This document shows, piece by piece, positions 680 through 49,259 of a stretch of DNA of 64,000 bases (its first letter is position 1; each line of letters starts with the position of its first letter). A program made the translations under genes and the position numbers. The notes beneath the pieces are model-generated. The model had not been told where the DNA came from and ran no database searches. It saw only the letters and a list, made by a program, of their open reading frames with translations. The DNA is from Escherichia phage vB_EcoM_005: sequence record MK295203. One strand, given 5' to 3'.

Positions 680-1339
680 ATGAATTATTTAATTTACAAA
701 ATAACCAATCTCATTAATAACAAGATTTATGTTGGAGCCCATGCCACTACAGATGTTAACGATTCTTATATGGGTTCTGGGGTTAACATAGTAAAATCCA
801 TAAAGAAGCACGGTTTAGAGAATTTTAAAAAGGAAATCCTTTTCAATTTCGAAACACCTGAAGAGATGTATGCTAAGGAAGCCGAACTAGTTGATGAGGC
901 TTTTGTCATGAGAACAGATACTTATAATGCTGCCTTAGGCGGTAAGGGTAATCCTGTTATAGTAGCTTTACAGGAACCCGGGTATCGTGAGATGTTATCC
1001 GAAAAGACCAAGGCCGGTATGACCAAGGAAGTAAGGGCCAAAATGTCTAAATCGAAAACAGGTTCTAAAGAATCCAAAGAGCACCGAGAAAACAAATCTA
1101 TAGCTAATAAAAAGTTTTACGAGAATAGGGATTCTCATCTTAAAGGTAGGAAACTATCAGAAGAACATAAAGCCAAAATTAGAAAGAATTCTAATAAAGG
1201 TAAGAAATTCGTATTTGTGGATATTTCTATTAAAGGTCATGAATTTAGCCATTACGATTACGCTGCCGAATTCTTTAACGTATCCGCAAAAACTATAAGA
1301 AATTGGATTAATGAACGCGATGATTGTTTTAAGCTATAG
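680..1339 (+). CDS. GIY-YIG homing endonuclease (seg-like)
   Basis: YLIYKITNLINNKIYVGAH and YMGSG motifs near N-terminus, basic repeats and HTH-like C-terminus; sits between genes 23 and 24 where T4 has segD. Confidence 0.8.
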   Translation: MNYLIYKITNLINNKIYVGAHATTDVNDSYMGSGVNIVKSIKKHGLENFKKEILFNFETPEEMYAKEAELVDEAFVMRTDTYNAALGGKGNPVIVALQEPGYREMLSEKTKAGMTKEVRAKMSKSKTGSKESKEHRENKSIANKKFYENRDSHLKGRKLSEEHKAKIRKNSNKGKKFVFVDISIKGHEFSHYDYAAEFFNVSAKTIRNWINERDDCFKL

Positions 1340-2846: not shown

Positions 2847-3563
2847 TTAAGAAATTCGTGATGCTGCGATTGCAGACAGGTCCGCGAAGGACAGGGTAGG
2901 CTTAGCGCCTTTTTCTTCAACTGCTTCTGAAATGTAATTCAGTGCCGCAGCATCGTCTACATTTTTATTTATAGCGGCTTCGGTGATTGGGTTTTCAACG
3001 TCAGTTTCAGTCAGGTCTTTAGTTGCTTCCGTAACAGCAACTTCACGCTGTACGTAATTAATATACGCGTCGCGCTTACCAACTTCTTCGAACAGACGAG
3101 CGGTTTCATCTTTCTGCTCTTGGAGTTCTTCTTCCATTTCAGCAACAACATCTACTGCTTCTTCTGGAACAACCACATTGTGTTCAACAAACAGTTCTTT
3201 CATACCCATCAACATGGATTCGAACAGTTCGGCTTTAATACCTTTATCAACAGCCAGCTGGTTTTCAGCCATCCATTCTTTAGCAACGTGGTCAAGGAAA
3301 CGACCGGCAGCTTCTTGGATTTTCTTATCGGCTTTTTCTTCAGCTTCTTCTTTATTTTTCTCTACTTCTTCTTCCGCTTTTTCAGCGATTTTAGCGATGT
3401 GAGATTCAGCCAGTTTCACGGCGTGTTGCTTGACGGTAGCTTCGAATACAGTGCCGAAAGTTTCTTTTGCTTCCGGAGAAATATTAACTGATTCGAAAAT
3501 ACTATCAAGAGCAACGGAAGCATCAATATTCTGTGCTTCGGCGATCAGTTGTTCTTTAAGCAT
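2847..3563 (-). CDS. 22: prohead scaffold protein gp22
   Basis: 238-aa acidic coiled-coil protein MLKEQLIAEAQ...; position between 21 and 23. Confidence 0.85.
   Translation of the reverse strand: MLKEQLIAEAQNIDASVALDSIFESVNISPEAKETFGTVFEATVKQHAVKLAESHIAKIAEKAEEEVEKNKEEAEEKADKKIQEAAGRFLDHVAKEWMAENQLAVDKGIKAELFESMLMGMKELFVEHNVVVPEEAVDVVAEMEEELQEQKDETARLFEEVGKRDAYINYVQREVAVTEATKDLTETDVENPITEAAINKNVDDAAALNYISEAVEEKGAKPTLSFADLSAIAASRIS
2966..2973 (-). promoter_or_regulatory. possible late promoter TATAAATA
   Basis: Forward TATTTATA = minus-strand TATAAATA, about 140 nt upstream of gene 23 start. Confidence 0.3.
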
Positions 3564-6557: not shown

Positions 6558-7139
6558 TCATTCATTTTCATGTTTGTGATAACGTGTTATAGCCGAACGA
6601 GTTGATTCAACACCACAGATAGGGCAAATCATCCTTGGCTGATTAATCTTTTTGCCTTTAGCCGGATGTTCTTTACCAAACATCGGATTACCTTCACCAG
6701 ACATAGCTTTGGCTTGGTCTGGTCGCTTACGTCCTTTTAGAGCTTTAGAATGTTCAGGCCTCTTTTTACCTAACCTACAATCTCTTTGTAGCTGTTTGGC
6801 ATGTTCACTCATTGGAATCCCTTTACGAGACATTCCAAAGAACCCGTCAGGCTGAGCTAATGACATATTTATATAGTTTTTAGATTTAACTACATTATAC
6901 TTTATTTGAAGCTCTTTCTCAGCTATACGAGCTTCTTTATCGGTTTCAAATAAAGATAAAATTCTGGTTTTGAAAAGGTGCGGATTTTCTTTACGTTCTA
7001 GATTCCAAATCTTTTTATATGCTTGGGATAATACAGAACCATTATATCCTTCTTTGAGAATCCTTTCAACGTATGTTGAGCCAATATAACGACGGGGTAG
7101 TTTAGACCCCGTGTATATGGTTAAGTAAGTACAATACAT
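6558..7139 (-). CDS. GIY-YIG homing endonuclease with C-terminal zinc finger
   Basis: TIYTGSKLPRRYIGSTY N-terminal motifs, repeated basic H-x-AK segments, C-terminal CPICG...H; free-standing between genes 20 and 19. Confidence 0.7.
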   Translation of the reverse strand: MYCTYLTIYTGSKLPRRYIGSTYVERILKEGYNGSVLSQAYKKIWNLERKENPHLFKTRILSLFETDKEARIAEKELQIKYNVVKSKNYINMSLAQPDGFFGMSRKGIPMSEHAKQLQRDCRLGKKRPEHSKALKGRKRPDQAKAMSGEGNPMFGKEHPAKGKKINQPRMICPICGVESTRSAITRYHKHENE

Positions 7140-12745: not shown

Positions 12746-13608
12746 GGGTTTCTCCTTGGTGCTGGAGGCGCTGGCTCGACAGGCACTGGAATATCTTGTG
12801 AATATGTTTGAACGGAACTTCCATCCCATTCTGTTTGTTCTACACCTCTCGGAACCACTTCGCTATCAACCGATTCGAAATTACCTTCAGGAGCGAGTTC
12901 CTTTGAGTTAGCAAAGAAATCAAGATAAATGGTTTTAATTTCGCCTTCCATTTCTTTAACTGGAGGATATAACCACCCGTTAACCTCAAACATCATGGAC
13001 CATTCTAAACGACGACGAGAAGTGGTATCGCCTTCTAATTGTTCGTCCATTGCAATAGACTGGAACACAATACGAATATCACGGTCAAATTTAATCTCGT
13101 TTGTATAGAGTTCAGTGATTGTTGTATTAAAGTGAGGTTGGAAATAAGGCATAATCTGTTCCACAATTTGGAACATATCATCTTGGGTTCTAGTGTAAAT
13201 ACCCAGTTCGAAAATCATTTTAACCGGAGTAGGAGAATATTGGCTAACCCGTTTACGAGGGTCACCATTCTCAAATTGAATTTGTGTTCTGTTCTGAAGA
13301 GCTGTTTTGTATTGTGAGTTATAAAGCATATCAACCATTTGAAGGTTCATACGTGGAAGAACTGTTTCCACTTTAGCCTTTTGTTCAGCTCGTTCTTTAG
13401 GAGACGTATTGGGATTTGGAATATTCTGTACTGCCGTCCATTTGCCCAAATTTGCCATAAATCTTTCTTTAGAAGCATACGTGATAGGAACCTTAATAAA
13501 TTTAAGCCCTGTATCTTCTCTTTGACGTGCTACTTGAACATGGGAAAATAAATCACCCATCAAAACAATATAGCGACGTAGCGAACTATTATAAAAGTGA
13601 CCGAACAT
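12742..13608 (-). CDS. 15: tail sheath stabilizer/terminator protein gp15
   Basis: [13 protein letters not shown]...VPITYASKE... matches T4 gp15 N-terminus as recalled; 288 aa. Confidence 0.85.
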
Positions 13609-14195
13609 TACTCACCTCTCATTTTACAATTATCATTATGCCAACGATTTATAAGATGGTATCCTATCATCTTGTGGCAATGTGGACACTCTACTTTTCT
13701 CTTTGGTACACCTGTTTGGGCTTGTCCAAAGGATACGGTATGTTCTGCTGAAAGCTTTTTGCCTTTGTGGGTTTCACTGGCTCTCTTTTTAGCATACTCT
13801 CCGTGATGTTTACCAAAAAATGGATTCAATTCACCTATACGAGTTTTACCCCAGGCTGATTTAACCCTCTTCATTTCTATACGGGCTTCTTCGTATTTTA
13901 TTTTTAATTCTTCTTCGGATAAATTTAAATTTCTACGTTCAGAACTACTAAACATAATCCAAAAGGCTAAAATCATTTTAGGGTCTTTTGTTTTTGCTAA
14001 GATTGCATGCGCCTCTAGATGGTCTAAAACATCTATAGAAACTATATTTTCCGGCGTGTTTTCGTATTCTGGAAATAAAGACCTAGGGAGAATATGATGT
14101 TTTTCGGTGTATTCTGTTTTAGGTGGCTTGGAGACCACCGCCAGATATTCATCTGTCAAATCCCCAAGCCATAATCCTACTTTTTCTTCTATCAT
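13608..14195 (-). CDS. HNH homing endonuclease
   Basis: HHILPRSLFPEYENTPENIVSIDVLDHLEAH HNH motif and C-terminal CPHCH...C zinc finger; inserted between genes 15 and 14. Confidence 0.7.
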   Translation of the reverse strand: MIEEKVGLWLGDLTDEYLAVVSKPPKTEYTEKHHILPRSLFPEYENTPENIVSIDVLDHLEAHAILAKTKDPKMILAFWIMFSSSERRNLNLSEEELKIKYEEARIEMKRVKSAWGKTRIGELNPFFGKHHGEYAKKRASETHKGKKLSAEHTVSFGQAQTGVPKRKVECPHCHKMIGYHLINRWHNDNCKMRGE

Positions 14196-14204
14196 AGAAG
14201 TTAT

Positions 14205-14908
14205 TTAATCATCTAAAAAAGCATCATCAAATGCTGTAGGAGGAGCATCTTCTCCTCGTCCATTAATTACAACATAAGGATGTACGAATTCAGCCGCTTC
14301 GGCATTAATCTCATTGACCTCTTCGTATTGAATGTCGGAGATATCAGCCAACCCGTCGATATTCTTAACAGGCATTAAATCAAGCTCACTGAATTCAGGA
14401 ATATTAATACCTTCATTTCTCTGTAATTCAGGACGAAGTTCTTCACCATTGTAAATGAACTTGGTAGCGGTAATTCGACGCTGGACGTTAGCACCTACTT
14501 GATAGAATGGGTCGTAAGGTTGTACCCAGTTAATTTCGAATAGGCTTATTATCCATTGGGAAATAAATCAAGTCGCCTGAAACAGGTTCAGTGCCATTGC
14601 ATTGATGTTTAAAAAGGTTAGGGTTAATTGTGATTGTTACTTCATCATTAACCATCATACCGAACTTACTGAAAGCCTATTCGGTCATTGGCATTTAACA
14701 TATTCACGTGGTATATAATAAAGCTCAATACCACGCATTTGAATAGACTCAGCAACTAAAGCATCAGCCAATGTTTGGGTATTCTCATGCTTGTAATGGT
14801 CGCCATTGGGTCATTGACAAAGGGATTGAGAATTTCGGCTTCGTTCGTATTAGCGTAACCTGTATTATTTTCTAGTTTGGCGAAAAGACTAGAATCAAAT
14901 GTCGACAT
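14205..14908 (-). CDS. 14: neck protein gp14 (multiple frameshifts; not translatable as one ORF)
   Basis: gp14-like segments lie in three frames: [23 protein letters not shown]..., [64 protein letters not shown]...; span of 704 nt is not a multiple of 3. Confidence 0.7.
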
Positions 14909-15521
14909 AACTCCACTCCTTCCATTTAGGTTTATCATTCTTTATTCTATTAATAACTGCGCTTTTGACTATACCAAAATACTCGGCGCATTCTTTACCT
15001 GTCGAGAATACCATTTCTCCGACTCTAACTGCTCTGGCCGCAGGATTTTTACTACCGGTAAAATCTGGGTGTTTCACACGCGTCCACATTAATGCGGTAG
15101 ATTCTTTTCTACGCTTTAGCCCTTCTTCAGTCCATTCTCTTGATTTTGCCGCCTCTGACATTCTTTTTCTTGATTCTATAGAACGGGTTTTACCTATATT
15201 AGGGTTATCTTTAGGATTGTAATAAGAAGGACCACCTTGTCCTCCTTTTACCAAATTAACACACTGAGCAAAATCTTCTTTAAGAATATCGACTAAAAGT
15301 TCTTCGGCTTCCTTTAATAATTCCGGATTACCGAAATCTTTCGACCATAATACCTGTTTTATACAGTTTCGTCCATATTTTTTCTTAGCATTCGAAATAT
15401 ACGTTCCTGAGCCAACGTATGAATCCAGCTTTGGATTAGATTTATCCGAATGTCTTTTACCGCCATAAATTTTTAATCCGTCCGACGTTTCAAACTCAGT
15501 CACGTATAATCTATAAAACAT
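14895..15521 (-). CDS. GIY-YIG homing endonuclease inserted between genes 13 and 14
   Basis: [10 protein letters not shown]...YVGSG motifs, C-terminal HTH; 3' end overlaps gene 14 start; ORF track fuses it to an upstream gene-14 fragment (14895..15668). Confidence 0.75.
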
Positions 15522-15568
15522 AATTATCCAATTAAAATAGGTGTTGGTGGGTCGAGTAAATCTAATTC
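15519..15568. repeat. 50-bp direct repeat, copy 1 (copy of gene 13 3' end)
   Basis: Identical 50-mer CATAATTATCCAATTAAAATAGGTGTTGGTGGGTCGAGTAAATCTAATTC also at 15666-15715. Confidence 0.85.
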
Positions 15569-15572
15569 GAAA

Positions 15573-15668
15573 GTTGACGAAAGGGTTCATTATTTCAGTT
15601 TCGTTCGTGTTAGCATAGCCAGTATTATCTTCTAGCTTAGCGAATAAACTCGAATCGAAAGTAGCCAT
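15573..15668 (-). other. duplicated, diverged 5' fragment of gene 14 (32 codons)
   Basis: [32 protein letters not shown], about 78% nt identical to the real gene 14 start at 14908; reads in frame into the HEG. Confidence 0.6.
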
Positions 15669-15715
15669 AATTATCCAATTAAAATAGGTGTTGGTGGGTC
15701 GAGTAAATCTAATTC
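15666..15715. repeat. 50-bp direct repeat, copy 2 (3' end of gene 13)
   Basis: Identical to 15519-15568; encodes gp13 C-terminus ...[14 protein letters not shown]. Confidence 0.85.
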
Positions 15716-16839
15716 CTCGCGAAGTCGTTCTTTTTCTAAACGAGCTTCTTCAATCAATCGAATAGCCATCTACAGTGGTTCCACCTGCAAGTTGCATGCC
15801 TTGGTGTTTGGCTAAAATATTACCATTGACCTCTTTAACCAGTGCCGTAGCATAATCTTTAACCCAACGGTTATTATATGCACCAGTCTTGAAGACCAAG
15901 GTCCTCACCTACACGCATACCAGAAATACGACGTGATGGATTATCCCAAACAGCTCCAGGGCTCCATTCATTTTCGTCACACCCACCAGAGGCATATCCA
16001 TATCCTGCAGTATTTCCTACCATAGAATCAACCCCATTAAAAGAGCGAGTATAAACTTCAATTACAATAAAATCACCTTTAACAAAGTTACCCATTACCT
16101 TCAACTGTTCAGTGGCATCGTTATACCAATAATCAGGCAACAAAATATTACCATTGACTTCTTTAACCAATGCCGTCGCATAATCTTTGACCCAACGGTT
16201 ATTATATGAACCATCTTGCAAACCAAGGTCTTCACCTGCCCTCATACCTGAAATACGACGAGCCGGGTTATCCCAAATAGCTCCGGGGCTCCATTCATTT
16301 TCGTCACACCCACCAGAGGCATATCCATATCCTGCAGTATTTCCTACCATAGAATCAACCCCATTAAAAGTGGAACCAAAAGGTCTTGCATCATAGAACG
16401 ATATTGCATTAATTGTGTAAAATAACCAAGGTCGGCACCGAAGGCATTAGGCCCAAAGCTGTTACAAGAAGGTTCCAAGACCACCATTAATACCGGCCAA
16501 GCCTAATACAAAATCAGTAAACCATGGATAAGTCGCTTGGCCATCCATAGATGTTAAAGAACCCACGTTGGTTCTCAAAATTTGTGTTACCGCAAATATA
16601 TTACGGCCTTTAAGGTCAAATACACCGTTACGGAATTTTTCTTCGTCATCATGGCCTATATAAAAAGCCTGATAACCTTTGTTATAGCCGTTATAATGAT
16701 ACTCACCGTAGAGCTCCAGTGCGCGCTGGATGCAATCGTATACTTGGTCTGTAGTTACTTCAATATTTGTAATCGGTGCACCCAGGCGGCGCAGGATTGC
16801 GTCCTTGAGTTGCTTAGGGTTATATGATTCACTTGCCAT
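15671..16839 (-). CDS. 13: neck protein gp13 (frameshifts and internal tandem duplication)
   Basis: [23 protein letters not shown]... matches T4 gp13; frame breaks near 16465 and 15760; 1169-nt span is not a multiple of 3. Confidence 0.75.
15814..16043. repeat. tandem duplication inside gene 13, copy A (about 230 bp)
   Basis: About 90% identical to 16142-16370; both encode [43 protein letters not shown]. Confidence 0.8.
16142..16370. repeat. tandem duplication inside gene 13, copy B
   Basis: See copy A; separated from it by a 98-bp unique segment encoding [19 protein letters not shown]... Confidence 0.8.
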
Positions 16840-16893: not shown

Positions 16894-19107
16894 TTATGGT
16901 GTTGGGGTTAAAGTCACAAAATCTGACAATAATACCCATGCATTATCAACAAGAACATACGGAAGTCCATCAGCAACTGGAGCCGCTGGCGGACGTTTAC
17001 CAAGTTCAGTTTCTAGTGCAGTGATTTTAGCTTCGGCTGCAGTTAAACGAGTAGTTAATCCTGCCACTTTACCTGATTCAACTTCAACAACACCTAAACG
17101 GGTATCAATAGCCGCTACTTTATCGGATTCACCCTTAACTTCAGCCAATCCAGATTTAAGTGTTACTATATCACCTTCTGCAGTGCCAAGGCGGGTATTA
17201 ATACCTGCTACCTTATCAGATTCGACTTTAACAGCGGCAAGTCCTGTTTCTAAAGTGGTGATTTTACCTTCTGCTGTAGTAACTCTAGTTGTTAAAGGAG
17301 CAATTTTGGCAGTATCAACTTTAATTGCGTTAATTTCACCTTCAGTAGAAGAAACTCGGCCAGTTAAAGAAACGATATCGCCTTTGTTCTTGGTGATATC
17401 CGCTTTAATAGGGGTCAACTGGTTTTCTAAATCGGTTACATCTAAAGCCAGTGCAGTAACATCGTCATCAGTAGTATCTGTCTTAGTTTCAAGAGCAGCA
17501 ATTTTACCGTTAATGGTTACATCACTAGATTCAAGTGCTGTTAAACGACCGTCCTGTTCAACGTCTTTAGCCTTTATAGTAACGATATCTGCTTTAATCT
17601 CACCAACCGAAGTGTTTAATGCACCGGTACGAGTATCAAGAGAAGAAATTGAGGTATCATTATCATCGACTCTAGAAGTTAAAGCGGCCACTTTACCGTT
17701 GGTAACAACCAAATCAGCCTTAACAGATTCTATTTCCGTAGAGCTATTGAGAACCTCTGTCCAAGTAGCATTGCGGCGTGCATAAAGCTTACCATCGGAA
17801 GGGGCATCATTCAACTTACCTAACATCTGGGTTTCTAAAGAAGTAACCGCGTTAATAAGACCACGTTCTTCTACAGTAGTACCGTTAGGGTTGGTCCCGT
17901 CAACCTTATTGGTGAGTTTAAGTAAAGTACCCTTAATACCGGATTGGTTATTTCCAATTTCTACTTGAATATCCTGGATAGATGAAGTAGATTGGTTTGC
18001 TTGGATAATAACGTCATTTAAACGCTTATTAATGGTCCCAGCTGCCGGAGATACTTCACTACCTAAACGGCGGTTGATATCAGTAACTTGGAAACGTAAG
18101 CCATCACTTGAACTAACACCCACTATGGTTTTAAGGTCATTTACATCGGTGCGAAGACCGCTTAAACGTCCATTAATAGAAGTAGGAGTTGATTCAGAAC
18201 CTATTTGGATTTCAATTGATGTTACACGAGGTTTTAAATCAACGTTGACTGAATTTTCTAGGGTAAGAGTTTTGCTTTCTAAAGTAGTTACTCGGTCCTT
18301 TATAGGCATACCGGAGAAATCAATATTGGTCTTAATTTCGTCGATAGACGTATTAAAATTAATTGCCGCCGTTTCTAATGCTGAAATTCGGGTATAAGCA
18401 GGTTGTTTACCTACCGTATCAGAATGCGGGCCAAGTTCAGCACGAATTTCATTTAATTTAATACCTAATTGCCCGACGTCAGAATCTTCATAATTCCTTT
18501 CAAGGGTATCAATGCGAAGACGATGGTCGACCAATTCAGTGGTATTATCAATGATGCGACGTTTCATACCGGTGGCTTCGCTGGTTTCACCTGGAGGCAA
18601 TGGATTGCCATTTATATCCTGGTTTTCATAATGACCTATTTCGGTTTTAAGAAGAACAATATTTTCACGTACAGTTAAATATGGGCCATCTTGTAAAGGG
18701 TCATGGTAACCAACGTCTTCACGCAAGTAATCAAAATTGGTGGTTAACTCATCCAATTTTCCTGTTGTTTCTGAAGTAACCTTTTTAAGGTCTACGATAT
18801 CAACACGGTTTTTCTCAATTTGTTGGATGACGGAAATATCCGTAGCCATTTCTAAGGCATCATTGATATTATTAACGTTTTCTACCAGTTCGTTAACTTT
18901 ATCTGCGGTTTTCAAATCATTCGCATCAAGAGCTTCAACGTTTTTCTGAACTCCTAAAGCAGCAGCGTTCAAATTACCTTCATTGCCGTATTTTGTTTTT
19001 GCTGCAGACATACAATCACCCTCGCGTATCCATTGGATACGCTTTTGAGGAGCATCAGGTACGCCGTCAACAAATGGTAACTCACTAAGTTCCAATTTGT
19101 TAATCAT
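16894..19107 (-). CDS. wac: fibritin (whisker antigen control) with extended coiled coil
   Basis: MINKLELSELPFVDGVPDAPQ... N-terminus like T4 wac, long repetitive coiled-coil segments; 737 aa versus 487 in T4 as recalled. Confidence 0.85.
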   Translation of the reverse strand: MINKLELSELPFVDGVPDAPQKRIQWIREGDCMSAAKTKYGNEGNLNAAALGVQKNVEALDANDLKTADKVNELVENVNNINDALEMATDISVIQQIEKNRVDIVDLKKVTSETTGKLDELTTNFDYLREDVGYHDPLQDGPYLTVRENIVLLKTEIGHYENQDINGNPLPPGETSEATGMKRRIIDNTTELVDHRLRIDTLERNYEDSDVGQLGIKLNEIRAELGPHSDTVGKQPAYTRISALETAAINFNTSIDEIKTNIDFSGMPIKDRVTTLESKTLTLENSVNVDLKPRVTSIEIQIGSESTPTSINGRLSGLRTDVNDLKTIVGVSSSDGLRFQVTDINRRLGSEVSPAAGTINKRLNDVIIQANQSTSSIQDIQVEIGNNQSGIKGTLLKLTNKVDGTNPNGTTVEERGLINAVTSLETQMLGKLNDAPSDGKLYARRNATWTEVLNSSTEIESVKADLVVTNGKVAALTSRVDDNDTSISSLDTRTGALNTSVGEIKADIVTIKAKDVEQDGRLTALESSDVTINGKIAALETKTDTTDDDVTALALDVTDLENQLTPIKADITKNKGDIVSLTGRVSSTEGEINAIKVDTAKIAPLTTRVTTAEGKITTLETGLAAVKVESDKVAGINTRLGTAEGDIVTLKSGLAEVKGESDKVAAIDTRLGVVEVESGKVAGLTTRLTAAEAKITALETELGKRPPAAPVADGLPYVLVDNAWVLLSDFVTLTPTP

Positions 19108-42954: not shown

Positions 42955-43818
42955 ATGATGTTAGTTATTGGTTCTCGTGCACTGCACCACGCTGGTCTGA
43001 TTGAAAGTAAGCATATCGAAAATTCTGATTGGGATTTCATTGCCGACCAAGGTTCATGGAACCATTTTAAAGCTCGGATGTTTGGTGCCCATGTTTCTGT
43101 GGATAATCCTGATGTCCAGGCTTTTAAATGCATGTACAACGGTAAAGAAACCTATTTTGAAGCATATATCGTTCGTGCTCTGACTAACGTACGAGAAATT
43201 ACCGGCGAGCTTCAAGACGAAGATTTCACCTCAAGTTATCGTCTCCTGAAATATGCCGAAAATCATATTAAAAAGGACCGTCTTACAGGTTTCTATTGGG
43301 CTACGCCTGATATCTGTCTGGCTATCAAAACCTCTCATCGTTTCCTGAAGAATAATCCTTTCTTCTTGAAAACTATGTCCCACATCAAATACCTTCGTAA
43401 TAAAGGTACCACCTTGAATGAAGAACTCCAGGAAATTATGCTGCAACGTCAAAAAGAAACGTTGAGCTATTCCCATCCTAAATTGGATGTAAACAAATCA
43501 TCGTTCTTTAATGATACCATGGAGAAGTTCGAGGCTTTGCCTGAAGCTATTAAATTGGCTGGTGTGTATGAAGAAACCTGTGTCCTGGCACTAGAACGTT
43601 CACAGGTTCCTAATGACTTCAATATTTCACCATCATTAAGTTTCTATATGGCTCTTGAGAAAGTGTGTACCTCAATCACTTCAGGTTGGTTCCGCACTTA
43701 TGCATGGGAAAACTACCAAGCTGTGGTTAATATGTACAAGACTTTAGGTGAAAGTGACTACATTGAACGATTTAAACGTAATCAACATCTTATTAAACCT
43801 TTCAAAAAGGCTGAGTAA
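42955..43818 (+). CDS. hypothetical protein (287 aa), possible nucleotidyltransferase-like N-terminus
   Basis: Internal ATGATG start after GAGGAAAA; N-terminal LVIGSRALHH...SDWDF loosely resembles a GS...DxD motif. Confidence 0.5.
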   Translation: MMLVIGSRALHHAGLIESKHIENSDWDFIADQGSWNHFKARMFGAHVSVDNPDVQAFKCMYNGKETYFEAYIVRALTNVREITGELQDEDFTSSYRLLKYAENHIKKDRLTGFYWATPDICLAIKTSHRFLKNNPFFLKTMSHIKYLRNKGTTLNEELQEIMLQRQKETLSYSHPKLDVNKSSFFNDTMEKFEALPEAIKLAGVYEETCVLALERSQVPNDFNISPSLSFYMALEKVCTSITSGWFRTYAWENYQAVVNMYKTLGESDYIERFKRNQHLIKPFKKAE

Positions 43819-44468
43819 TGGGACGGCCTCTAAAAGATTTAACCGGACAGGTTATAAATGGTATTAAATTTTTATCGGTGGCCTATAAAGCCACCGGATC
43901 GCCAACCAAGTGGCTTTTATTGTGCCATTGCGGTGAAGAATTCGTTACCACCGCCTCTAGAATAAAAACAGGAAAAACAAAATCATGCGGCTGTGAAAGA
44001 TACCATTATTCCTTTATAAAGAATAGGTATACATATTCCTCATATTCTGCTATGATTGCTAGATGTACAGACCCTAAACATAAAGCCTATCCCGCCTACG
44101 GTGGTAATGGTATAGTTGTTTGTGACGAGTGGCTTCCTAAAGGAAAGAAAGGGTATTTAAAATTTGTCGAGGATATGGGCGAGAGACCTAAAGGGACTTC
44201 AATAAATCGAATAGGTTCTGTTAAAAGGTATAGCAAAGAAACTTGTGAGTGGGCTCCATTTACAATGCAATCATTTGACCAAAGAACGCGTCATGATTCA
44301 CCGGGTCCTATTTCAGGAGTTGTATATAGAAAAGATAGAAATAAATGGGTAGCTTCTATAACAGTAGAAGGCGAAGCCATAGGGCTATATTATGGTGATA
44401 CTGAAAGCGAAGCGATAGAGGCTAGAAAACAAGCTGAACTTAAATATTTTGGAAGATTTAAGTCATAA
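43818..44468 (+). CDS. AP2-domain DNA-binding protein (homing-endonuclease-like)
   Basis: C-terminal ...GVVYRKDRNKWVASITVEGEAIGLYYGDTESEAIEARKQAELKYFG AP2-type motif; Cys-rich N-terminus. Confidence 0.55.
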   Translation: MGRPLKDLTGQVINGIKFLSVAYKATGSPTKWLLLCHCGEEFVTTASRIKTGKTKSCGCERYHYSFIKNRYTYSSYSAMIARCTDPKHKAYPAYGGNGIVVCDEWLPKGKKGYLKFVEDMGERPKGTSINRIGSVKRYSKETCEWAPFTMQSFDQRTRHDSPGPISGVVYRKDRNKWVASITVEGEAIGLYYGDTESEAIEARKQAELKYFGRFKS

Positions 44469-47462: not shown

Positions 47463-47512
47463 TACAGTTACTTGAACAGACCAATTAAAATATTTACCTT
47501 TAAGGAACCAGT

Positions 47513-48109
47513 ATGAAAACGTATAAAGAATTTATCACCGAAGCTTCTGTAGGAAAGGTCCAAGGCATTAATAAAGATGAGTGGACTTACCGAGGAAACG
47601 GCGTTGACAAAATAGGAAACGGCTTTGACGCTAAAACAGCTCCTATTGAACGGTATTTAGCTACAAAGGCTTCCGATTTTAAAGCTTTCGCTTGGGAAGG
47701 ACTTCGCTGGCGTAACGACCTAAATATTGAAGCTGATGGGCTTAAATTTGGCCATATCCAAGATGTTGTTGCTAGTAACTTGGATGCAGCTTTTATTAAA
47801 GCCGACGGTGACCTTCGTCGCTGGAATTTAAAACTGTTCTCTAAACAGAAAGGTCCGGTATTTGTACCTAAAGCAGGTAAATGGACTATTGATAATAAAT
47901 TGGCTAAAGCGGTTAACTTCGCTGGTCTTGAATTTGCCAAGCACAAATCAGCATGGAAAGGTCTTGATACAATGGCTTTCCGTAAAGAATTTGCTGATGT
48001 TATGACTAAAGCCGGCTTTAAGGCAGAACTAGATACCTCTAAAGGTACGTTTAAAGACGCTAATATTCAGTACGCTTACGCCGTTGCTAATGCAGCCCGT
48101 GGTAATTAA
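47513..48109 (+). CDS. ipIII: internal protein III
   Basis: MKTYKEFITEASVGKVQGINKDEWTYRGNGVDKIGNGFD... matches T4 IPIII as recalled; 198 aa. Confidence 0.8.
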   Translation: MKTYKEFITEASVGKVQGINKDEWTYRGNGVDKIGNGFDAKTAPIERYLATKASDFKAFAWEGLRWRNDLNIEADGLKFGHIQDVVASNLDAAFIKADGDLRRWNLKLFSKQKGPVFVPKAGKWTIDNKLAKAVNFAGLEFAKHKSAWKGLDTMAFRKEFADVMTKAGFKAELDTSKGTFKDANIQYAYAVANAARGN

Positions 48110-48137
48110 TAAAGCGATTTACCTTTAAAGGAAACAT

Positions 48138-48440
48138 ATGAAAACCTATCAAGAATTTATCACTGAAGCCCGCGTAACCGCAGGTAAATTAGAAGCCGCT
48201 GTAAATAAAAAGGCCCATTCATTTCATGATTTGTCAGATAAAGACCGTAAGAAACTTGTAAGCCTTTATATTGACAAAGAGCGTATTCTCGCTCTCCCGG
48301 GCGCTAATGAAGGTAAACAGGCCAAGCCTTTGAATTCTGTCGAAAAGAAAATTGATAACTTTGCTTCTAAGTTTGGTATGTCTATGGATGACCTTCAGCA
48401 AGCGGCTACCGAAGCAGCTAAAGCAATTAAAGGTAAATAA
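48138..48440 (+). CDS. ipII: internal protein II
   Basis: MKTYQEFITEARVTAGKLEAAVNKKAHSFHDL...; 100 aa; T4 order e-ipIII-ipII-denV. Confidence 0.8.
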   Translation: MKTYQEFITEARVTAGKLEAAVNKKAHSFHDLSDKDRKKLVSLYIDKERILALPGANEGKQAKPLNSVEKKIDNFASKFGMSMDDLQQAATEAAKAIKGK

Positions 48441-48917: not shown

Positions 48918-48959
48918 TTAAATCCGTGATAGAATACTTCTATCAACTTAAGGAATAAT

Positions 48960-49259
48960 ATGAAAACTTATCAAGAATTTATTACAGAAGCCAAAGCTCC
49001 TAAAGCATTTCAAATTGGGGTTCAAGGCAATTTAGACCAAGAATATGTTGATGCTATTGTAGCAAGCCTCGGTAAACAGGGTGTACAAGTGGATTTGGTT
49101 GATTTTACCAAAGGTAATACTTTTAATATTGTTACGTCTAAAGGCTCTTTAGCTAAAGTTAAAAAGGCTTTTGGTGTAGCACAAGCCTACGAAATCGACC
49201 ACTCTGAATTAGAAAATAAAGGTCGCCAGAACACAATTAAAGGTTCTGGTTCTTTCTAA
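48960..49259 (+). CDS. internal-protein-like (leader MKTYQEFITEA), 99 aa
   Basis: Same capsid-targeting leader. Confidence 0.65.
   Translation: MKTYQEFITEAKAPKAFQIGVQGNLDQEYVDAIVASLGKQGVQVDLVDFTKGNTFNIVTSKGSLAKVKKAFGVAQAYEIDHSELENKGRQNTIKGSGSF

Follow-up and report, generated by a model that had tools for sequence, protein, structure and literature searches.

A mobile GIY-YIG endonuclease cassette at the gene 13/14 junction of a Dhakavirus genome record, and the probably artefactual duplication beside it

The stretch of DNA analysed here, hereafter the window, comprises 64,000 nucleotides of Escherichia phage vB_EcoM_005 (sequence record MK295203). It belongs to a Dhakavirus, that is, a JS98-like phage of the T4 type, and its closest relative in the databases is Escherichia phage MX01. 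On the minus strand, late genes are arranged in the order wac, gene 13, an endonuclease gene, gene 14, an HNH gene, and genes 15, 16, and 17. The first of these, wac, occupies positions 19107–16894 and is followed by gene 13 (15669–16839) and, beyond the endonuclease gene, by gene 14 (14205–14908), which encodes a head completion or neck protein. The HNH gene (13608–14195, minus strand), located between genes 14 and 15, specifies a second free-standing endonuclease of 195 amino acids and matches the homing endonuclease family phrog_655 (E 7e-39). An identical HNH protein is found at the same site in two contigs of the Logan collection, L012 and L013, and is absent from MX01. This gene lies outside the duplication described below.

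The gene between genes 13 and 14 (14895–15521, minus strand) is a free-standing homing endonuclease gene whose 208-amino-acid product combines a GIY-YIG domain, a NUMOD3 linker, and an I-TevI-type DNA-binding domain. The protein is 100% identical to ORF161 of MX01, a "putative endonuclease" (YP_009324058.1; NC_031934, 92888–93514), and matches phrog_314, "homing endonuclease", with an E-value of 9e-33. Its match to NUMOD3 lies just above the Pfam cutoff, while the matches to the I-TevI DNA-binding domain PF20987 (E 3e-5) and to TIGR01453, "group I intron endonuclease" (E 1e-8), fall below cutoff. Since neither the Pfam GIY-YIG model nor a phmmer search against the PDB returned a match, the structure of the protein was predicted from a 14-sequence alignment, yielding a mean pLDDT of 73.6 and values of 80–88 for the N-terminal domain. 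In this alignment, Y6, Y19, E73, and N89 are invariant and R23 is nearly invariant; the spacings of these residues resemble those of the catalytic residues of I-TevI. All 14 aligned family members have the GIY-YIG motif in their first 10 or so residues. The protein displays both an N-terminal GIY-YIG catalytic fold with the conserved Tyr…Tyr, Arg, Glu, and Asn residues and a C-terminal, sequence-tolerant DNA-binding module composed of NUMOD3 and an I-TevI-type helix-turn-helix. These lines of evidence are concordant and support, with moderate confidence, the assignment of the 208-residue reading frame to the GIY-YIG endonucleases of the I-TevI/Seg-like type. A first-pass annotation of the window, made from the letters alone, had placed a GIY-YIG endonuclease between genes 13 and 14, and this identification is upheld by the domains, by the I-TevI-like fold, and by the presence of the gene at the same site in MX01. 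A search of the literature on phages MX01, WG01, and QL01 brought up nothing specific to this protein.

The 3′ end of the endonuclease gene overlaps the start of gene 14, as the same annotation had recognised. The endonuclease stop codon (14895–14897) and the gene 14 ATG (14908–14906) define an overlap of 14 nt, the same as in MX01; the ATG is embedded in the 3′ end of the endonuclease gene, with an AAGGAG motif located 7 nt upstream. The first 95 nt of this downstream gene 14 (14814–14908, minus strand) are 100% identical to MX01 and constitute a recoded allele linked to the endonuclease. Compared with the ordinary allele, 24 of 93 nt differ, corresponding to 16–17 synonymous (17 against JS98) and 3 non-synonymous codon changes. 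The recoded tract occurs with 0 mismatches in every endonuclease-carrying locus and in no locus without the endonuclease, a linkage that holds in seven of seven independent assemblies. The ordinary gene 14 allele is confined to endonuclease-free loci, and the window alone has both alleles.

The exact endonuclease protein is present in MX01 and in five further, unrelated SRA assemblies, and a 99% identical variant in a sixth. Carriers of the gene comprise MX01 and the contigs L011, L012, and L015–L019; JS98, L013, and most Dhakaviruses are without it. Homologues with 55–62% identity adjoin gene 14 in Mosigvirus, Gaprivervirus, Tequatrovirus, and Klebsiella phages, their position between genes 13 and 14 being confirmed in mogra and SP18, and a search of IMG/VR for loci related to the endonuclease gave no confirmed relatives. 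Between MX01 and L011, the endonuclease and the first ~95–150 nt of gene 14 are 98–100% identical and the gene 13 and gene 14 flanks outside the cassette ~88–92% identical; the neighbouring wac, gp12, and gp10 genes are 72–81% identical between the window and L011. Over the first 100 nt of gene 14, MX01 and L011 are both ~75% identical to the endonuclease-free JS98 and converge with it thereafter. The gene is free-standing, sporadically present at one site, and part of a cassette that is more conserved than its flanks. This endonuclease cassette is real, mobile, and already known; MX01 carries it as an annotated gene, and members of its family are frequent in T-even phages at the site between genes 13 and 14.

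At the other end of the endonuclease gene, positions 15519–15568 and 15666–15715 are identical 50-mers, and the perfect 50-bp direct repeat described in the first reading is thereby borne out. On the minus strand, the 50-mer contains the last 14 codons of gene 13, its TAA, the dinucleotide TT, and an ATG, so that its earlier description as the last 50 bp of gene 13 was approximately right. The chance expectation of such a 50-nt pair in 64 kb is, by our own estimate, far below 1e-20, and an origin of the repeat by chance was ruled out on account of its length. Repeat copy 2 (15519–15568, minus strand) represents the normal gene 13/endonuclease junction as found in MX01 and six Logan assemblies, and the ATG that closes it is the start used by the endonuclease. 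Repeat copy 1 (15666–15715, minus strand) joins the end of gene 13 to the ATG of a second gene 14 start, termed 14′, and corresponds to the normal junction of endonuclease-free phages. The repeat is terminated by a C/T difference at 15716; its 50 nt are the stretch exactly common to both junction alleles.

The 14′ segment (15569–15668, minus strand) corresponds exactly to nt 1–100 of gene 14 in its ordinary allelic form. It matches endonuclease-free relatives, differing from JS98 at 5 of 93 nt and from the endonuclease-free contig L013 at 6 of 93, and ends at gene 14 nt 98, followed by two unmatched nucleotides. The two gene 14 starts of the window are 77% identical over 97 nt (14814–14910 versus 15574–15670), in agreement with the earlier figure of about 78%, and differ at 22 of 93 nt (14 synonymous and 4 non-synonymous codon changes). 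The label "recoded", which the first-pass annotation had attached to the copy between the repeats, has to be reversed: it is the downstream copy that is recoded, and the one flanked by the repeats has the ordinary sequence. Neither gene 14 start is a copy of the other; they represent distinct natural alleles. Together, the 50-nt repeat and 97 nt of 14′ form a tandem unit of 147 nt. The claim that 14′ reads in frame into the endonuclease gene proved correct, for the frame from 15668 to 14895 (minus strand) is open and specifies 257 amino acids: 33 codons of 14′, 16 codons through repeat copy 2, and the endonuclease. The 16 linker codons derive from gene 13 in another frame, and the public gene index has no entry for a 257-residue fusion product. 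Window positions 14814–15568 are identical to MX01, and positions 15569–16140 align as a single collinear segment to the 13/14 junction in the endonuclease-free phages ABTNLS3, MN04, IME281, and Bp7, with ~94.7% identity over 572 nt; the junction itself (15569–15770) is 97.6% identical to fDHCT2. An endonuclease-free junction is therefore placed directly ahead of a carrier junction.

The duplication is present in none of the seven other endonuclease-carrying assemblies. In all seven, the endonuclease ATG is located 2 nt after the gene 13 stop, and each locus has one junction type only. An exact search recovered the join between 14′ and the end of gene 13 neither from IMG/VR, JGI metagenomes, or GTDB genomes nor from any of the fetched loci, and no independent endonuclease-carrying genome showed the same junction. 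MX01 agrees with the window in the endonuclease protein (100%), the insertion point, the 14 nt shared by the endonuclease gene and gene 14, and the recoded 95-nt start of the latter. It differs in being without the 147-nt duplication, in having intact genes 13 and 14, and in having no HNH gene between genes 14 and 15. A comparison of the 13/14 junction in related phages, proposed in the first-pass annotation, has in this way uncovered the endonuclease-linked tract and left the duplication without a counterpart. Much the same applies to the interpretation of the locus as a footprint of endonuclease invasion with co-conversion of flanks: a flank tract does travel with the cassette, but the duplication recurs in none of the other seven carriers.

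Genes 13 and 14 had been treated as intact, whereas both are broken by frameshifts in the window. Gene 13 is distributed over at least four open reading frames and contains +1 insertions at 15765, 15886, and 16472 as well as an extra 230-nt block at 16141–16370. Gene 14 has no intact frame, its open reading frames comprising just 60, 42, and 56 amino acids, and tblastn with gp14 of MX01 yields split matches in different frames. The +1 insertions, three in gene 13 and one in gene 14, are uncompensated. In addition, an 18-nt filler at 14796–14813, absent from MX01, L012, and L013, replaces 4 nt at gene 14 nt 96–99 (net +14 nt, a frameshift), and a 20-nt filler at 14675–14694 replaces 104–105 nt of gene 14 (net −85 nt, a second frame shift); the block lost at the latter position is present in MX01, L012, and L013. 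Programmed frameshifting or a split organisation of genes 13 and 14 was ruled out by the intact single open reading frames found in every relative.

The 230-nt block (minus strand) belongs to a second gene 13 allele and stands out of register, duplicating positions 15814–16043 at 92–93% identity. It is 98.3% identical to MX01, and the paralogous stretch is 93.7% identical. The sequences flanking the block, at 16140 and 16371, are contiguous in MX01 coordinates (4861 and 4862). At 16140/16141, 572 nt away from the join between 14′ and repeat copy 2, the sequence returns to a point 327 nt earlier in gene 13. Natural repeats aside, the 14′ unit and the 230-nt block are the only two such local duplications in the 64 kb. 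Neither a duplicated gp13 fragment of 158 amino acids nor a Wac protein of 737 amino acids is on record.

Losses are scattered over the whole window. At least 27 blocks of MX01, ~100 nt each and none under ~97 nt, are missing from within essential genes, and for 16 of them the net loss is exactly 99 nt. A single base, always G or T, takes the place of a block of 100–167 nt in 13 cases. The block missing from gp22 is present in 78 of 78 matching phage records, and L012 and L013 contain further blocks that the window has lost. A search of IMG/VR for a 99-nt deletion junction found it absent. Disruption affects gp23, gp11, gp7, gp13, and gp14, and gp5, 6, 8, 9, 12, 18, and 22 are short of 33–107 residues; the sequence of the window is therefore not that of a viable genome; the coherent, viable context in which a genuine duplication would be expected is not found here. 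Annotation-aware editing was considered as a source of the losses and rejected: by our own arithmetic, two of the four 99-nt losses checked start in codon phase, and no consistent phase emerges. The number 99 equals 2k−1 for k = 50, and the repeat is itself k nucleotides long. The 99-nt quantum and the 50-nt repeat together hint at the handling of bubbles in a de Bruijn graph. A model of collapsed single-nucleotide polymorphism bubbles would make the replacement base the middle base of the lost block, and this was observed in four of the eight cases compared. Several details fit the k-mer model poorly: instead of k nucleotides, the 14′ arm has only ~8 nt of the downstream sequence in common, and in its simple form the model does not accommodate the fillers of 18 and 20 nt.

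We infer that the duplication is probably an artefact in which the junctions of two co-assembled variants, one with and one without the endonuclease, stand in series. A mixed or poorly covered sample would have been assembled or scaffolded in such a way that the endonuclease-free gene 13/14 junction was put before the gene 13/endonuclease junction of the carrier, the two being joined via the 50 nt that both variants have exactly in common. A mixed sample is plausible because relatives that are 97–98% identical to the window and share its HNH gene occur both with the endonuclease (L012) and without it (L013). The locus has several features in common with artefacts of mixed-strain haplotype co-assembly or bubble linearisation, namely two alleles in series connected by a stretch of exact identity, another block of this kind nearby, losses of fixed length, and broken essential genes. 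It differs from them in the arm ends and fillers, which misfit a simple k-mer model. An assembly artefact, which the first-pass annotation had itself named as the finding that would speak against its interpretation, is the best-supported reading, and the 147-nt tandem unit most likely exists in no phage genome.

That the duplication is real seems unlikely. It would have arisen in a mixed infection when a genome lacking the endonuclease was cut near gene 14 nt 96–100 and illegitimate repair captured a piece of the donor that ran from the last 50 nt of gene 13 through the endonuclease to the recoded start of gene 14, resulting in a tandem hybrid. Such an origin would account for the two gene 14 copies, which are the expected recipient and donor alleles, and relatives with and without the endonuclease do co-exist in nature. 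Both breakpoints lie at gene 14 nt 95–100, right after the last difference between the alleles, and a true break at a cleavage site would give the same breakpoints. The 147-nt unit also leaves the reading frame open, which has a chance of about one in three, yet would likewise be expected from selection. Against this, the duplication is found in none of the seven carrier assemblies and in no public collection searched, and its product contains neither an intact gene 13 nor an intact gene 14 and so cannot be the consensus of a propagating phage. Moreover, the nearby 230-nt out-of-register block has no explanation by homing, and the 99-nt losses throughout the window look computational. Recombination of the T4 type would soon collapse a perfect 50-nt repeat, and the resident enzyme would be expected to attack an endonuclease-free site left in place; both considerations count against a real duplication. 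More narrowly, the locus could represent an aberrant homing product, in which a genome cut at gene 14 nt 96–100 captured the cassette without resection and the recipient homing site was preserved. This version, to be regarded as distinctly improbable, would, if true, show where an uncharacterised Seg-like enzyme cleaves in vivo.

A different computational origin, such as patching against a reference, gap closing, the merging of several genomes into a consensus, or deliberate or accidental editing of the record, is likewise doubtful as a separate explanation. The fixed losses of 99 or 100 nt and the single G or T replacement base in 13 of 13 cases look rule-based, and the fillers at 14675–14694 and 14796–14813 resemble nearby sequence. 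The extra blocks, however, are natural alleles rather than self-copies and require a second real genome, which makes this proposal a variant of the co-assembly explanation and not a distinct alternative to it. It is barely credible that the duplication is both real and functional, a special case whose small probability is already contained in that of a real duplication: although two ATGs with identical upstream sequence and an open 257-residue frame would permit an alternative upstream start with a gp14-derived N-terminal extension, with a role, for instance, in regulation or targeting, no relative has the extension and its product is not on record, the 16 linker codons are gene 13 read out of frame, the GIY-YIG motif normally begins at residue 1–6, and the neighbouring essential genes are broken. 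The two possible translation starts attributed to the endonuclease in the first-pass annotation exist solely in the window, amid broken genes 13 and 14 and assembly-type lesions.

Apart from the duplication, which is probably a product of co-assembly, the real element at this locus is a promoter-less homing endonuclease cassette of the T4 Seg/I-TevI type, placed exactly at the gene 13 stop and gene 14 start. In bacteriophage T4, the free-standing GIY-YIG endonucleases SegA–G are associated with "intronless homing" (Edgell, Gibb and Belfort 2010, PMC2988022). The cassette resembles the T4 seg genes in being a small, promoter-less gene between conserved genes, with its start coupled to or overlapping its neighbours, as well as in its presence/absence polymorphism among close relatives and in a flank tract that is inherited with the gene. 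T4 itself has no seg gene between genes 13 and 14, segC being located between 5.1 and 5.3 (PMC2988022). Cleavage, target, and homing are attributed to the endonuclease of the window by analogy with the T4 Seg enzymes. It also differs from I-TevI, the GIY-YIG enzyme of the T4 td intron, in being free-standing rather than intron-encoded, and shares with it 14–25% sequence identity in structural alignments. Further counterparts are the T-even homologues beside gene 14 in Mosigvirus mogra, in Gaprivervirus SP18 (where the gene is termed "segC") and VR26, in Tequatrovirus phT4A, and in Klebsiella phages of the genera Slopekvirus and Jiaodavirus. As in the window, the gene downstream of each is a gene 14 with a diverged start of its own, which reconverges at the sequence GTnAACTT at about nt 91–98. 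They differ in representing other alleles in other genera, and in the loci examined none has retained an ancestral gene 14 start.

From this anatomy, a route of inheritance can be proposed for the cassette. The endonuclease would take over the old gene 14 start, a coupled ATG located 2 nt past the gene 13 TAA, and its conserved C-terminal codons (K-W-K-E-W-S-Y) carry the AAGGAG motif and the ATG, which would serve gene 14 as its new ribosome-binding site and start. Approximately the first 95 nt of gene 14 travel with the endonuclease in recoded form, most of the changes being synonymous. If the enzyme acts like its characterised relatives, it would cut the endonuclease-free allele of a co-infecting relative at or near the 13/14 junction or within the opening ~95 nt of gene 14. 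Repair of the break by recombination would go on to transfer the endonuclease, along with the tract next to it, into the cut genome. The recoded tract might thereby act both as a co-converted flank and as a shield from self-cleavage. We infer cleavage, homing, and self-protection by this endonuclease from the anatomy of the locus together with the characterised Seg and I-TevI enzymes.

The discovery value of the locus is small, given that the endonuclease is already annotated and the unusual-looking duplication is probably not biological. With dozens of assembly-type lesions in the window, its other odd features—duplications, truncated or fused reading frames, and frameshifts—deserve distrust as well. 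For the Dhakaviruses, the cassette leads to a prediction: in endonuclease-free members, the target of the enzyme would lie at the 13/14 junction or in the opening ~95 nt of gene 14, and the recoded tract would resist cleavage.

Relative to Escherichia phage MX01, the closest database relative, exactly 99 nt are absent from the window at 16 sites, and between 97 and 299 nt are absent at about 11 additional sites. Such losses are found across the whole window, for example at 3005, 19466, 21018, 23300, 23985, 27472, 31005, 31231, 45143, 47050, 51928, 54139, 56612, 59013 and 62454. At 13 sites, a missing block of at least 100 nt is replaced by a single base, which is without exception G or T. The losses relative to MX01 display neither codon phase nor regular spacing, and they strike genes for essential structural proteins (gp5, 6, 7, 8, 9, 11, 12, 18, 22, and 23). 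This pattern looks computational rather than biological.

Within gene 13, a 230-nt block (16141-16370) represents a second allele of the gene that is placed out of register. It is 98.3% identical to MX01 and 92-93% identical to its paralogous stretch at 15814-16043, and its two flanks adjoin one another in MX01 coordinates. Gene 14 carries two fillers: 20 nt at 14675-14694 in place of 105 nt of the gene, and 18 nt at 14796-14813 in place of 4 nt. The motifs CCATTGGG and GCCTATTCG in inverted orientation are common to both fillers and to the region 14535-14560, within which a +1 insertion is also located. A 62-nt repeat present in three copies (47483-47544, 48108-48169, and 48930-48991; 65-79% identity among copies) looks like a natural feature. 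In each of three successive small genes it takes in the ribosome-binding site together with the opening codons (MKTY.EFI.E), and it is probably the conserved leader of internal head protein genes.

An HNH-type homing endonuclease of 195 amino acids is encoded between genes 14 and 15 (13608-14195, minus strand; phrog_655, E 7e-39). Both MX01 and JS98, a Dhakavirus devoid of the gene 13/14 endonuclease, lack this gene. Two Logan assemblies, one with and the other without the gene 13/14 endonuclease, encode an identical protein at the same site. Three more insertions relative to MX01, each of about 650 nt (680-1339, plus strand; 6558-7139, minus strand; 43818-44468, plus strand), harbor one ORF apiece resembling a free-standing endonuclease. 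The one between genes 24 and 23 is GIY-YIG Seg-like and 219 aa long, the one between genes 20 and 19 measures 193 aa, and the third, of 216 aa, has an AP2-like C-terminus.

In the Dhakavirus vB_EcoM_FB (locus L010, 1819-2463), the gene 13/14 site is occupied by a different ORF of 214 amino acids, followed, as with the other gene 13/14 insertion, by a diverged gene 14 start of its own. A further, different ORF of 212 amino acids resides between genes 14 and 15 on a Logan contig (L015, 5395-6033). Given these two ORFs, free-standing endonuclease genes appear to have a hotspot at the neck-gene junctions.
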